This document shows positions 4,846-63,792 of a stretch of DNA of 64,000 nucleotides, in pieces. Position 1 is the first letter of the stretch, and the number at the start of each line of letters is the position of its first letter. Source of the DNA: Escherichia phage ph0011. The notes beneath the pieces were generated by a model. It saw only the letters and a list, made by a program, of their open reading frames with translations. It searched no databases and was not told the DNA's origin. The stretch lies in sequence record OP557969.1; one strand, written 5' to 3'. The position numbers were made by a program, and so were the translations under genes.

Positions 4846-4854
4846 TGATATAAT
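4846..4854 (+). promoter_or_regulatory. extended -10 promoter element TGATATAAT
   Basis: exact TGaTATAAT in intergenic gap 30 nt upstream of SD. Confidence 0.45.
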
Positions 4855-4894
4855 ATTGGATAAGGAACAATAACTAACACAAGGAGTGTGGAAA

Positions 4895-5623
4895 GTGCTT
4901 GACCGTATCCGTTTTGCCACAGAGATGGCGAATGAATTAAACATGGCAAATTTTCAAATGTTAACATCAGTGATGGCTGAACATGCATGTGCTTATTCTG
5001 TAAGTGGTGTGCAGTGTGGTCAGGAGAATATGTTAGCAGATGTATATAGCGAAGTTCAAAGTAAACAATACAGTGTAAAGACGTACAAGGATAAGTTCGT
5101 TAGTCTTTATATGAATGAAGACATTTCAGAAGACCGCAAATATACTGATTTTATTATTGAACGAAGAGTATCAGGTGTATCTAATCCTAACGCACCAAGT
5201 GATGAAGTTTTTTCAGAAGTACTGAAAGATATATACGAAAATGAATTGAAAAGTAAGAATCATTACAATGTACGTGAAACTAACACTGTGCTCTTGGGAT
5301 ATGATGAAGACGATCAATATTATTATTTCCGTATGACAGAAGTCCCTTTTGAATACAAATCACCAAGTACTACTGCTGTAAAAGAATTTACCGAGAAAAG
5401 CAAGAACTACAAGAAACATGAAGGCAACCGTTGTAGTATAAATGGTTATAATGAAGATGGTGTTCATATATATGAATGGGTTCATCCTAATTGCCAGACA
5501 TATACCCGTTGCTTGAAGAAACGTTATAATTTAGAAGACAATGAATCCTTCTACTTTAAAGTTAAGAAACAAAGCTATACTCGCCCTGAAGATTCAGAAT
5601 TGATGGGTATGGTATATTTCTAA
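4895..5623 (+). CDS. hypothetical protein
   Basis: ORF track (4886 GTG); second in-frame GTG at 4895 has better spacing to AAGGAG. Confidence 0.55.
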   Translation: MLDRIRFATEMANELNMANFQMLTSVMAEHACAYSVSGVQCGQENMLADVYSEVQSKQYSVKTYKDKFVSLYMNEDISEDRKYTDFIIERRVSGVSNPNAPSDEVFSEVLKDIYENELKSKNHYNVRETNTVLLGYDEDDQYYYFRMTEVPFEYKSPSTTAVKEFTEKSKNYKKHEGNRCSINGYNEDGVHIYEWVHPNCQTYTRCLKKRYNLEDNESFYFKVKKQSYTRPEDSELMGMVYF

Positions 5624-5632
5624 GGAACTGTT

Positions 5633-5914
5633 ATGGATTTTTACCTACACACATGGTCATACGAACAATACATTACATTATATCTTGAGATTATTAATAC
5701 TGATCCCAGATATGGTTGTGATTTTGCTGATATTATAAAAGAGTATGCAGATGAGTTTGAGTTTGTATATCTTGGCTCTGACCTATTCGTGAAGAGTGTA
5801 GGTAAAACCGGACGCATCACTGAGATTGATTATGATACTGTTAGTGTGAATTTCTATGTTGATTTTCCTTGTGATGGCGTTGATGGTGTATATTGTCTAT
5901 ATGAAATAATTTAA
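5633..5914 (+). CDS. hypothetical small protein
   Basis: ORF track; terminator downstream. Confidence 0.5.
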   Translation: MDFYLHTWSYEQYITLYLEIINTDPRYGCDFADIIKEYADEFEFVYLGSDLFVKSVGKTGRITEIDYDTVSVNFYVDFPCDGVDGVYCLYEII

Positions 5915-5921
5915 ATTTTTA

Positions 5922-5946
5922 GGCCAGCGTTTGCTGGTCTTTTTTC
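5922..5946 (+). terminator. rho-independent terminator
   Basis: stem ggccagc/gctggtc followed by TTTTTT. Confidence 0.55.
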
Positions 5947-5958
5947 GCAGGTACAAAG

Positions 5959-6258
5959 ATGATTAGTATAGATTTAATTAACAGTACTATAAAGTTGTTG
6001 GCTGATGTAGTGAGAGAATCCAATGGAACTGTATACCCATCAATGTATAAAATCTTTGAACGATACATCAAGGATTGTAACATATCCTTATATGGACTGG
6101 CGGTTGATATAGACGACCACTATGAAATTAATACTTCATATAAAACAGGAATGTTAATTGGTATTAATATGATGGGATATTTTCCTTATTACTGTATAGG
6201 ATTACCAGATAGTACTATGGTAGATTACCCAGCCAGTACTATTAAATTAAGAGGATAA
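5959..6258 (+). CDS. hypothetical protein
   Basis: ORF track. Confidence 0.5.
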   Translation: MISIDLINSTIKLLADVVRESNGTVYPSMYKIFERYIKDCNISLYGLAVDIDDHYEINTSYKTGMLIGINMMGYFPYYCIGLPDSTMVDYPASTIKLRG

Positions 6259-6265
6259 AACTAAA

Positions 6266-61508: not shown

Positions 61509-61510
61509 TG

Positions 61511-61696
61511 ATGGAATATACAATATGTGCTATTATTTGTATCTTAGCTTTAATCTGTGGTGTTGGTGTGATGGTTTATTGTGATGTAGAACCCAGTACT
61601 GAAGTAGGTACAACCATCACATTTAAACCTGGTGTTAAAATTAATGATACCTATTGCTACAATCCAAACACAAACCGCTATGAGATTTGTTTATGA
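61511..61696 (+). CDS. small membrane protein
   Basis: hydrophobic N-terminus; ATG 61511 overlaps TGA of the repeat-encoded peptide frame. Confidence 0.45.
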   Translation: MEYTICAIICILALICGVGVMVYCDVEPSTEVGTTITFKPGVKINDTYCYNPNTNRYEICL

Positions 61697-62100
61697 GAAC
61701 ATTCAACATTGTTCATATAATTGAACCGATTGCAGAACATATGAAAAACATAAGTAATAACGAGTCAGGTTTTTACTTCAATTTAGATAAACTTCATCGT
61801 TATACCAATGTATCTAGTTTTAATCGTGCTAAGAGACTTTATATCCGTATACACAACCTATGGTACAGTGATGATACGTTGATGATAGATATCACTGTTG
61901 ATGAAGACATAAAATTAAGATATATTGACGATTTTAAATCAGATGATATTCGTTCTGGTTCATTACCAATTGATGCTTCATATGAAGAATATCTGCAATA
62001 TCAGTTCATTGATGACACATTTGGCTTTGACTTTGAACTATATAATAGTATAATGAACGTATACCATATATATGAAAGGCATTTGAATGGACATTCGTAA
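61687..62100 (+). CDS. hypothetical protein, paralogue pair member 1
   Basis: C-terminal EYLQYQFIDDTFGFDFELYNSIMNVYHIYERHL shared with next gene. Confidence 0.55.
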   Translation: MFMRTFNIVHIIEPIAEHMKNISNNESGFYFNLDKLHRYTNVSSFNRAKRLYIRIHNLWYSDDTLMIDITVDEDIKLRYIDDFKSDDIRSGSLPIDASYEEYLQYQFIDDTFGFDFELYNSIMNVYHIYERHLNGHS

Positions 62101-62509
62101 AATACCAAATTTCAACAGCACATTAAGGTTCTTTTCTGAACATGAAATCAGTACTGAAAGACGTGGTTTAGTTACATATAATCAACATCGTGTTATGTAC
62201 ACTAATAATTTTCAGGGTACTGTACGAATAAAATTTCGTAATGCGTTAGAAGAGAATGATGAATTGTTAATTTTACTAAGAAAAAGTAAGATTGAATTGA
62301 CATACGCAACTCACCATATTGAAAGTGAGTTGATGTGGCACACCCTATCAAAAAAAGAAGGTTCATTACCAGTTGTTGATAATGGTCCTGAAACACTTGA
62401 TCAGTACATGTTCATTGATGATACATTTAGTATTGACTATCCATCATTTCAGTGTATACTAGATATACATGCAAAATATTACGACCGTCTACGTGATAGA
62501 TTAATTTAA
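62087..62509 (+). CDS. hypothetical protein, paralogue pair member 2
   Basis: C-terminal LDQYMFIDDTFSIDYPSFQCILDIHAKYYDRL. Confidence 0.55.
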   Translation: MDIRKIPNFNSTLRFFSEHEISTERRGLVTYNQHRVMYTNNFQGTVRIKFRNALEENDELLILLRKSKIELTYATHHIESELMWHTLSKKEGSLPVVDNGPETLDQYMFIDDTFSIDYPSFQCILDIHAKYYDRLRDRLI

Positions 62510-62520
62510 TTGGAGGCATT

Positions 62521-62643
62521 GTGATTACAGTGTTAGAAGAAGATTGGGGTGTTTCCGAGCAAGGAACAGATGAATATGAATATCCAGAATATCAGCCAAA
62601 AGGCTTCTGGGAACGTCTACGTGATTGGTTGATGGGGGAATAA
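62521..62643 (+). CDS. possible 40-aa peptide encoded by repeat copy 2 (ends GFWERLRDWLMGE)
   Basis: GTG start 5 nt after GGAGG; intact frame, unlike copy 1. Confidence 0.35.
   Translation: MITVLEEDWGVSEQGTDEYEYPEYQPKGFWERLRDWLMGE
62536..62640 (+). repeat. 105-bp direct repeat copy 2
   Basis: see copy 1. Confidence 0.6.
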
Positions 62644-62644
62644 T

Positions 62645-63757
62645 ATGAAAAAGTATTTGGTTGGAGGTTATACGAGAGATCGTTTAATGGGCATCCGTGC
62701 AAAAGACAAAGATTATGTCATTGTTGGTGCAACTGAATCCGATATTAAGTACTTGCAAAGTATTGGTTATAAGCAAGTAGGCAAGGACTTCCCTGTGTAC
62801 TTGAGTCCAGAGGGTAATGAACACGCATTGGCTCGTACCGAGCGTAAGACTGGTACTGGATATGGTGGTTTCGAAGTGAATACAAAAGGTGTGACACTAG
62901 AACAAGATCTATATCGTCGTGATCTCACAATCAATAGTATTGCTTATGATCCAGTACTCCAGATTCACATCGACCCTTATGGTGGGAAAGCTGATATCAA
63001 GAACAAAGTACTTCGTCATGTATCAGAACACTTTAAAGAAGATCCATTGCGTGTTCTACGTTTGGCCCGTTTCGCTACACGTTATTCAGACTTTTCTATC
63101 CATGAAAGTACAGAGGAACTTGCTATTAGTATGGTCAATAGTGGTGAATTAGATCATCTTGTCCCAGACCGTGTTTTTGTTGAATTTGAAAAAGCACTTT
63201 CTGAAGAAAAACCATCTAAATTCCTCAAAACCCTAAGTAAATTTGGTTATTATGAGAAAGTTTTCAAAACATCTCTAACTAAAAAGAATTTAGACATAAT
63301 TGATTATATTTCTGATAACTGCACGGATGTATATAAACCATATTTCTTGTGGGCAGTACTTCTTGAAAATGAAGAAGTAGATAATAATTCTGTTCTAAAT
63401 GGTGCTATTAAAGTACCAGTAAAGTATGTAAAATTTAGTAATTACATCAAACGTTTTTCTGATGATATCAAAACCTTCCGAAAAAAGACCCCAGATGAAA
63501 TGGGTAATATTTTAATGGAAATGAATATCAAAAACAACGGAGGTGAAGGATTCCTTTATAAAGTATTGGAGTATTTCATTTTACGAAAAGAAATCGATTT
63601 AGAACATGAAGACCTGATTGTTAAAGTATATGACAGATATACTGATGTAGTATTACCTGATATTCAGCAACTGGTGAAAGACGGTGAACTTGAAACATCA
63701 GAAATTCGTGATTTTGTTTGTGGGCTACGTTACGAAGCAATTAAACAATTATTCTAA
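62645..63757 (+). CDS. tRNA nucleotidyltransferase (CCA-adding enzyme, class II head/neck; no HD domain)
   Basis: YLVGGYTRD, ALARTERKTGTGYGGF, RRDLTINSIAYD, DPLRVLRLARFATRY collinear with bacterial CCA enzyme. Confidence 0.85.
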   Translation: MKKYLVGGYTRDRLMGIRAKDKDYVIVGATESDIKYLQSIGYKQVGKDFPVYLSPEGNEHALARTERKTGTGYGGFEVNTKGVTLEQDLYRRDLTINSIAYDPVLQIHIDPYGGKADIKNKVLRHVSEHFKEDPLRVLRLARFATRYSDFSIHESTEELAISMVNSGELDHLVPDRVFVEFEKALSEEKPSKFLKTLSKFGYYEKVFKTSLTKKNLDIIDYISDNCTDVYKPYFLWAVLLENEEVDNNSVLNGAIKVPVKYVKFSNYIKRFSDDIKTFRKKTPDEMGNILMEMNIKNNGGEGFLYKVLEYFILRKEIDLEHEDLIVKVYDRYTDVVLPDIQQLVKDGELETSEIRDFVCGLRYEAIKQLF

Positions 63758-63783
63758 AAAAATCGGGACAAAAAACCAATAAC

Positions 63784-63792
63784 TGATATAAT
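63784..63792 (+). promoter_or_regulatory. extended -10 promoter element TGATATAAT
   Basis: exact 9-mer 42 nt upstream of ATG 63834. Confidence 0.4.

Follow-up and report, generated by a model that had tools for sequence, protein, structure and literature searches.

A recurrent extended -10 motif in Escherichia phage ph0011 probably belongs to a second, lineage-specific promoter class of Rak2-like jumbo phages

Introduction

A stretch of 64,000 nucleotides (nt) from the genome of Escherichia phage ph0011 (OP557969.1; the whole stretch is called the window below) carries repeated exact copies of the 9-mer TGATATAAT, several of them in gaps between genes. The 9-mer reads as an extended -10 element (TG, one base, TATAAT), and an earlier note on this DNA regarded it as the early-promoter class of the phage. 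Does the motif mark promoters, at which stage of infection would they be used, and which protein would recognise them? We report here that the intergenic copies belong to a composite element with a box at the -35 position, and that this element, termed class II, is quite probably a promoter class distinct from the early-type one, termed class I.

The window comes from the genome of a jumbo myovirus, and nearly all of its genes lie on the + strand. In the segment tested it showed about 92% identity to Escherichia phage A4, and the phages of the PBECO4/121Q group were its more distant kin. The A4 genome (ON286972, Asteriusvirus, 355 kb) was joined from nine pieces and used as a whole for the genome-wide tests, and the syntenic 41-kb replication modules of PBECO4, Ecwhy_1, RaK2 and CBB were compared with that of A4. 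The literature yielded no 5'-end data for Rak2-like jumbo phages, including Asteriusvirus, and no promoter analysis of the E. coli members of this giant-phage group; a 2025 paper on Asteriusvirus Sharanji contains none. The promoter classes described below offer a usable transcription map for giant phages of E. coli, Klebsiella and Erwinia, in whose genomes about 80% is 'hypothetical'.

Recurrence of the motif in intergenic gaps

TGATATAAT occurred 12 times in the window, always on the + strand, against 3.1 copies expected on both strands, and none of 100 shuffled sequences reached 12. Six of the copies (at 4846, 12615, 20259, 31539, 52245 and 63784) lie in non-coding gaps, as the earlier note had claimed. 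These gaps amount to 3.7–4.2 kb (about 6% of the window), in which 0.11 copies were expected, and no intergenic copy was found on the - strand, so that the enrichment proposed in the note was borne out. The word TGNTATAAT was found 19 times on the + strand and once on the - strand. A scan with the generic sigma70 consensus gave 106 and 89 sites, where 114 and 99 were expected, and was uninformative.

A fixed-distance box at the -35 position

All six intergenic copies have the form TG-A-TATAAT, which is an extended -10 sequence of the sigma70 type, and all six are preceded by an nnGACA box (TGGACA, GAGACA, TAGACA and, three times, GGGACA; summarised as [G/T][G/A]GACA). The distance from this box to TATAAT is 16 bp in four copies and 17 bp in two, contrary to the earlier view that most copies lack a good -35 element at 17 bp. 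Measured to the TG, the gap is 13 nt in four and 14 nt in two of the window copies, and 13 nt in 21 of 26 A4 sites. The pattern G[GA]GACA-N13-14-TGNTATAAT was present five times on the + strand of the window and 12 times on that of A4, was absent from the - strand of both, and did not turn up in any of 20 Markov-simulated A4 sequences. At positions that the search pattern left free, the A4 sites favoured G at -35 and -34 (T at -34 in 1 of 26), T or C directly before the box, G before the TG, and A or C as the base that follows TG. Only some of the TGATATAAT copies have A-rich DNA upstream.

Comparison with A4 indicated which parts of the element are retained. At 4846, the box is the exact point where homology to A4 sets in, since the window has an additional gene of 494 amino acids (aa) upstream, and the box and the -10 element are kept while the spacer has diverged. 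The same was seen at 52226 (with TGC in A4) and at 63765, where roughly half of the 13 spacer bases differ from the A4 site at 137805. The sense-strand bias, the intergenic location, the box at a fixed distance, and the conservation of box and -10 across a diverged spacer all back the proposal of the note that the motif identifies the starts of transcription units; judged from these sequence features, it is very probable that the six intergenic copies act as promoter -10 elements at such starts.

Two positional statements of the note needed revision. A start codon 30–45 nt downstream was found for five of the six copies (31–40 nt), whereas no open reading frame (ORF) follows the copy at 52245. 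A location just after a terminator hairpin, described as frequent, applies to the 4846 copy alone, where the hairpin has a dG of -9.3 kcal/mol (z -4.46; 0 of 200 shuffles equally stable); the hairpin at 31539 has no U-run, and the other four copies have none. The coordinates of all sites are collected in Table 1.

Table 1. Predicted promoters, motif copies and associated elements in the window
Feature	Position	Strand	Remarks
Predicted class II promoter, TGGACA-N16-TATAAT with TG	4827..4854	+	Predicted start about 4861; ORF 4895-5623 (242 aa, no Pfam match)
AT-rich hairpin with U-run, predicted intrinsic terminator of the 494-aa ORF	4795..4825	+	Ends 1 nt before the box
Predicted class II promoter, GAGACA-N16-TATAAT with TG	12596..12623	+	ORF 12656-12985; region without A4 counterpart
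Predicted class II promoter, TAGACA-N16-TATAAT with TG	20240..20267	+	ClpP protease gene 20302-20997; identical in A4 (88092)
Predicted class II promoter, GGGACA-N17-TATAAT with TG	31519..31547	+	Small ORF 31580-31768; box within an 11-bp hairpin
Predicted class II promoter, GGGACA-N16-TATAAT with TG	52226..52253	+	Non-coding RNA downstream, not an ORF
Predicted class II promoter, GGGACA-N16-TATAAT with TG	63765..63792	+	NUDIX hydrolase gene from 63826
Candidate class II promoter, GGAACA-N13-TGCTATAAT	8709..8736	+	3' end of RNA ligase gene, before ORF 8964; same sequence in A4 (75645)
Candidate class II promoter, GGGAAA-N13-TGCTATAAT	57954..57981	+	Short gap after ORF 57568-57963
Candidate class II-like site, GGGACA-N16-TATAAT without TG	29260..29287	+	Near 3' end of ORF 28826-29377; same in A4 (98279)
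Candidate internal class II promoter, GGGACA-N17-TATAAT with TG	14813..14841	+	Inside metallophosphoesterase ORF 14342-15100
Coding copy (Asp-Ile-Ile codons)	16319..16327	+	Upstream box absent
Coding copies of the same kind as 16319	36035, 39745, 47996, 55652	+	No upstream box
Contrasting canonical site, TTGACA-N16-TATAAT with TGC	59126..59153	+	Ahead of lysozyme gene, 5' leader of about 100 nt
Predicted structured non-coding RNA unit, about 520 nt	52260..52779	+	5' domain 52300-52516; intrinsic terminator 52757-52779

The product of the gene behind the 20240 site matched Pfam CLP_protease (1.6e-41). Boxes of the GGGAAG/GGGAAA type, as in the candidate at 57954, also precede RNase H in A4 and PBECO4. 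In addition, boxes of the GGGACA type were seen as hairpin arms at 31516-31536 (GGGACAatatGTCCC) and 60568-60588 (GGGACAgaattaatctGTCCC, followed by a T-run) of the window and at 239170-239200 of A4 (agcGGGATAatCCCGCT before TGATATAAT), and likewise in PBECO4 and Ecwhy_1; from such hairpin arms, it would appear that the box can also serve as a component of a terminator or a structured element.

Copies within coding sequence

The earlier note had listed two coding copies, at 36044 and about 55655. There are six (14833, 16319, 36035, 39745, 47996 and 55652), four of which had been overlooked, and the two listed ones lie at 36035 and 55652. Within a gene, TGATATAAT fits one open frame only, xxT GAT ATA ATx, which encodes Asp-Ile-Ile/Met. 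Under codon-aware null models (codon shuffling and synonymous resampling), 0.8–0.95 coding copies were expected in the window against the 6 observed, and 3.3–4.8 against 19 on the sense strand of A4, where the antisense count was near expectation. This 4- to 6-fold excess in both rules out pure chance. In A4, GAT-ATA was twice as frequent in D-I-[I/M] as in D-I overall, and this codon context accounts for part of the excess; the likeliest explanation of most coding copies lies in AT-rich composition or in Asp-Ile-Ile codons. The motif is not conserved in A4 at 16319, 39745 and 47996, and the copies at 36035 and 55652 have no A4 counterpart.

The copy at 14833 may be an internal promoter, because a box is present and both the box and TGATA[T/C]AAT are kept in A4 (at 82653). 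Its retention could instead reflect conserved amino acids (GTKS...DII).

Two promoter classes in phage A4

To describe the sites genome-wide, all nnGAC[AT]-N16-18-TAnAAT sequences of A4 were listed. Class I has the form aaaaagta-TTGACA (or TACTTGCA)-N16-(agtaC)TGTATAAT-agtttacatc, with an A-tract at the position of an UP element and usually without TGn, and class II combines a GGGACA-type box with TG[A/C]TATAAT. The two features were associated: TTGACA-type boxes had TG in 5 sites and lacked it in 25, and other boxes had TG in 19 sites and lacked it in 7 (Fisher p=3e-5). Class I sites clustered at 4.8–24.5 kb and 304–339 kb, among tiny ORFs each with its own gap, and such small-ORF regions held 18 of 25 class I sites compared with 3 of 19 class II sites (p=3e-4). 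The early-type class of A4 is thus a different motif in other regions of the genome, and the assignment of TGATATAAT to the early promoters could not be upheld. The class I promoters were stereotyped (aaaaag-TACTTGCA/TTGACA-N16-GTATAAT-gttttacatc, then a GGGG...CCCC hairpin), and five repeats at 329–339 kb formed a sub-family, GGTTGACTTCGGTCAGCC(C)TTTTT-TGCTATAAT, with the -35 element inside a terminator-like hairpin.

Class II sites of A4 precede the DNA polymerase operon, RNase H, SSB (two promoters), primase and exonuclease, as well as topoisomerase II, a ClpA-like gene, tRNA-Ser and a gene annotated as late sigma factor. By the definitions used for phage T4 (PMC2988021), this set of genes would be of the 'middle' type, a timing that we infer. 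Class II appears to be used for replication-era genes and, as described below, a conserved non-coding RNA.

A 7-mer enrichment over 237 upstream gaps of A4 recovered classes I and II, a T4-late-like ATAAATA box (40-fold) and terminator tails, and nothing else. A fourth class for a phage sigma factor was rejected; the sole extra enriched word, TACTTGCA, is an early-class -35 element in variant form. By sequence, three promoter classes can now be distinguished. In the window, late-type TATAAATA boxes lie at 40129-40136, before an 899-aa ORF at 40168, and at 53355-53362, before the 'structural protein' ORF 53381; by their sequence both would fit the third (late) class, ATAAATA.

Conservation across genera

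Six syntenic promoters could be aligned among A4, PBECO4, Ecwhy_1, RaK2 and CBB, with TGnTATAAT and the 13-nt gap intact in all. The footprint at these orthologous sites consisted of a conserved box and -10 element and diverged spacers. The box itself differed by lineage: G[G/A]GACA in E. coli Asteriusviruses, cTGAACA in RaK2 and TGAAACG/TGGAATG in CBB, with 'AC' alone shared across genera; two further lineages have TGGGA[C/T]A (Hallingskeid) and GGAGATA/TGAGCAT (EJP2). Only 2 of the 6 positions of TTGACA recur in the CBB box, which is nonetheless equally well conserved. The base between TG and TATAAT was also lineage-specific (A or C here, G in CBB).

Region 4 of sigma70 is essentially identical among Enterobacterales hosts, and the hosts of the compared phages are all Enterobacterales. 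A box that varies by genus is therefore unlikely to be a -35 element read by the host sigma70, and these alignments suggest that it is more likely read by a phage-encoded factor. An invariant host-type -10 element combined with a drifting -35 box amounts to a natural experiment that points to a specificity factor encoded by the phage, and it makes the role of the RpoD-like sigma factor, which characterises the 'group 2' jumbo phages, directly testable.

A structured RNA behind the 52245 copy

No credible ORF was found in the 701 nt after the promoter at the 52245 copy. This region was 95% identical to phages of the PBECO4 type, whose neighbouring genes showed about 74% identity, and it matched 71 phage records from nine host genera, at four places per genome. 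The four copies of A4 (65171, 125757, 205624 and 320998) each fill a large gap annotated as gene-free and each lie 44–70 nt downstream of a class II promoter. An RNA copy behind a class II promoter with the box of its own lineage was also present in 121Q, RaK2, CBB, GAP32 and one uncultured contig.

An alignment of the 5' domain from 15 copies gave 27 consensus pairs, and compensatory changes were seen in 16 of these. Ninety-six per cent of the alignment cells were paired, compared with 77% in shuffled alignments, and the covariation score was 0.51 versus 0.16; none of 500 shuffles reached 0.51, and slid registers scored 0.10 or less throughout. A covariance model recovered a single copy in the window (193 bits) and four in A4, and located copies after the sigma factor gene in 121Q and Ecwhy_1. 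Searches of Rfam gave no match at the gathering thresholds and only four chance-level matches at E<=10, and neither a tRNA nor a known RNA family was found as the product. The four non-coding RNAs of phage PA5oct detected by RNA sequencing were also considered as homologues; the covariance model R1 did not match them at E<=1, and therefore no expression data could be borrowed for this RNA.

The 52226 promoter would drive a structured RNA of an undescribed family, and this RNA may be the greatest novelty of the window. In all Rak2-like jumbo phages, the family appears to have four paralogues per genome, to be more conserved than the flanking proteins and to lie behind a class II promoter in every case. 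The interval 52225-52925 of the window is also a site of mosaicism: it was 95% identical to PBECO4-type phages and just 78.5% to A4, whereas outside it the window shared about 92% identity with A4 and about 74% with phages of the PBECO4 type.

Comparison with known promoter systems

Buttimer et al. (2017, PMC5259590) predicted three promoter classes in CBB with MEME: an RpoD-like class that carries an UP-like element and lies in the putative early region; a class called 'divergent RpoD-like' ('Promoter 1'), in which TGAAACG replaces the -35 element, which lies mostly before DNA-synthesis genes and which is reported there to occur in GAP32 as well; and a late ATAAATA class. The sequences of their Table S6 align position by position with the window motif, with the same spacing. 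The divergent class and class II share a box of 6–7 nt, the 13-nt gap and TGnTATAAT, and they occupy orthologous positions before the DNA polymerase operon, RNase H, SSB (two promoters), primase and exonuclease. They differ in the box, which is TGAAACG/TGGAACG in CBB and GGGACA/GAGACA here, so that the window sites depart from the TGAAACG consensus, and in the preferred base after TG (G in CBB, A or C here). As far as these alignments indicate, a class already known from predictions in two related phages has its Asteriusvirus variant in class II. The CBB paper (PMC5259590) does not describe a lineage-specific change of the box, a link to non-coding RNA or a proposal for what reads the box; new here are the genus-specific box, a T4-middle-like regulon without MotA/AsiA, and the predicted control of a structured RNA family.

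The middle promoters of T4 have a MotA box, (a/t)(a/t)(a/t)TGCTTtA, centred at -30 and 12 +/- 1 bp from the -10 element (Hinton 2010, PMC2988021). Their -10 element is a stringent sigma70 one with TGn in about half of the cases, and they depend on sigma appropriation by MotA/AsiA (PMC2988021). Class II resembles them in joining a host-type -10 element, often with TGn, to a phage-specific element in place of the -35, and in the genes downstream (replication, recombination, nucleotide metabolism, tRNA and late-switch genes). Unlike the MotA box, the box here is of the GGGACA type and lies 16–17 bp from TATAAT, the true -35 position, and these phages encode an RpoD-like sigma factor, which is absent in T4. 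Single-sequence phmmer searches of the six-frame ORFs of at least 40 aa from A4 and the window gave no match to T4 AsiA or MotA at E<=10, and on this search a T4-type MotA/AsiA pair was rejected as the basis of class II. Because the box sequence and distance differ and AsiA and MotA had no match, class II is not a member of the T4 middle family.

The early promoters of T4 (UP/-35/TGn/-10) share with class II the TGn and a consensus -10 element, which fits the sigma70 -10 rules very strongly. They also have a good sigma70 -35 element and UP elements, a description that appears to suit class I here better than the TGATATAAT class, whose box matches the sigma70 hexamer at 4 of 6 positions (GACA only) and avoids T at -34. 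Extended -10 promoters of E. coli likewise carry TG at -15/-14 with TATAAT and can work without -35 contact; unlike them, class II has at -35 a conserved hexamer that departs from the consensus, namely the G[G/A]GACA box, which changes by lineage.

Recognition of the box

The best explanation of these data as a whole, to which we give slightly less than an even chance, is that a phage-encoded protein reads the box, the phage's own sigma70-family protein being the leading but unproven candidate. The host core RNA polymerase would be used, because these phages encode no polymerase. The -10 half would act as a sigma70-type element, workable with little or no -35 contact, and the box, which ends 13–14 bp before the TG, as a lineage-specific signal for a phage specificity determinant that gives the class its own timing; our best guess for this determinant is region 4 of the early-expressed sigma70-family protein (the A4_181 orthologue). 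Class II would then fire prereplicative units, namely those of ClpP, NUDIX and several uncharacterised genes in the window, those of DNA polymerase, SSB, primase, exonuclease, RNase H, topoisomerase, tRNA and late sigma factor in A4, and the four structured RNAs. The cascade would run from host sigma70 through the phage sigma70-like factor to a gp55-like late sigma factor. In a more specific form, which we consider speculative and rather unlikely, Rak2-like jumbo phages would operate a three-sigma cascade on the host core, with class II as the regulon of the phage RpoD-like sigma factor, whose region 4 would have co-evolved with the genus-specific -35 box, and with the four RNAs of about 0.25–0.55 kb, conserved across all genera of the group, as part of that regulon.

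The RpoD-like sigma factor of such phages is dealt with in a 2021 paper (PMC7824862). A gene of the sigma70 family was conserved in all the phages compared here, with 34–74% identity from A4 to CBB, and in A4 it lies in the class I (early) region with a class II promoter directly after it. The three promoter classes from k-mer enrichment can be set against three available sigma factors. We aligned the phage protein by hand with E. coli sigma70, whose residue numbering is used here. In this alignment, what we take to be the recognition helix, KSRSSVHRKYSEA, follows an insertion of about 11 residues, keeps R584 and carries E585S, R588H and Q589R. The putative -35 recognition helix varies between genera and keeps 1 of the 4 contact residues of sigma70. 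A second candidate for the box reader, the product of ORF 60214-60546, annotated in A4 as 'putative sigma factor / sigma 54', was rejected, as it matched Pfam Ribosomal_S30AE (E 2.5e-10).

Several observations weigh against a phage sigma factor as the reader, or against class II as a class of its own. In its -10 half, class II matches the sigma70 consensus exactly and is uniform among genera, whereas the -10-reading region of the phage sigma factor varies by lineage, and the residues that we presume to read -12 and TG in sigma70 are replaced in it (W433T, W434S, Q437M, T440Y, H455Y and E458V); reading of the -10 element by host sigma70 therefore fits better. The match of the phage protein to Pfam region 4 was below threshold. 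When box and helix were compared in seven phages from five box groups, their co-variation agreed with this reader without being compelling; Hallingskeid combined a GGGACA-type box with a partly different helix. Five promoters in A4 join TTGACA to TGnTATAAT, so that the separation of the classes is imperfect, and the GGGACA of the 31519 site is replaced in the A4 orthologue by TTGACA-N17-TGCTATAAT; from this switch of box type at one orthologous site, the two types may be partly interchangeable. Moreover, both promoter activity and 'middle' timing are inferred from sequence.

The constancy of the -10 half lends some weight to an arrangement with the logic of T4 and non-homologous proteins, in which the host sigma70 holoenzyme would read TGn/-10 and the box would bind a phage activator, possibly together with an anti-sigma factor that disables region 4. 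A constant -10 half beside a drifting box is what an invariant host protein and a variable phage protein should produce, and T4 middle promoters share both the architecture and the gene set, TGn/-10 promoters being immune to AsiA (PMC2988021). We nevertheless consider an activator unlikely, given the failure of the AsiA and MotA searches described above and a box that is unlike the MotA box and has its 3' end 16–17 bp from TATAAT instead of 12 +/- 1; it would also leave the conserved sigma70-family protein of the phage without a promoter class. A reading in line with the earlier note, in which unmodified host sigma70 would use these sites as early promoters through the extended -10 element, with GACA as a partial -35, is one that we doubt. 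A perfect TGnTATAAT is enough for sigma70 in E. coli, four of the six positions of TTGACA are matched by nnGACA, TGn occurs in T4 early promoters as well (PMC2988021), the 31519 site has TTGACA in A4, and A-rich DNA precedes several copies. Against this, the early small-ORF regions are filled by a separate and far more sigma70-like class with A-tract UP elements, class II almost never has T at -34 and favours G at both variable positions, the TGAAACG of CBB is as well conserved with its 2 of 6 matches, and the genes downstream have replication-era functions or encode the late sigma factor.

That the recurrence has no function and simply follows from AT-rich composition or from Asp-Ile-Ile codons is in our judgement very improbable. 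Half of the copies are coding and use the sole open frame, the GAT-ATA pair is doubled in D-I-[I/M] of A4, and conservation in A4 is lacking for the three copies at 16319, 39745 and 47996. For the intergenic copies such an account is refuted: six were found where 0.11 were expected, with none on the other strand, and all six have the fixed-distance box, with box and -10 element conserved between diverged spacers.

Other features of the window

Genes annotated in relatives of this region include those for RNA ligase, polynucleotide kinase, DNA ligase, ClpP and PhoH, and further those for anaerobic ribonucleotide reductase, thymidine kinase, lysozyme and NUDIX hydrolase. The 494-aa ORF at 3297-4781 had no Pfam match and is absent at the syntenic position of A4. 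ORF 60214-60546 is a homologue of ribosome hibernation factors, i.e. a phage-encoded HPF/RaiA-like protein. In the NUDIX gene (63826-64000 of the window; 137866-138301 of A4), the N-terminal strands, MRYSCGIIFYRDGQILIGHTTR, and the Nudix box, NHWDLPKGKAEGNETFKEAAVRECYEETG, lie in different frames in both phages; this split may reflect programmed +1 frameshifting, or else a frameshift of ancestral origin combined with a restart inside the gene.

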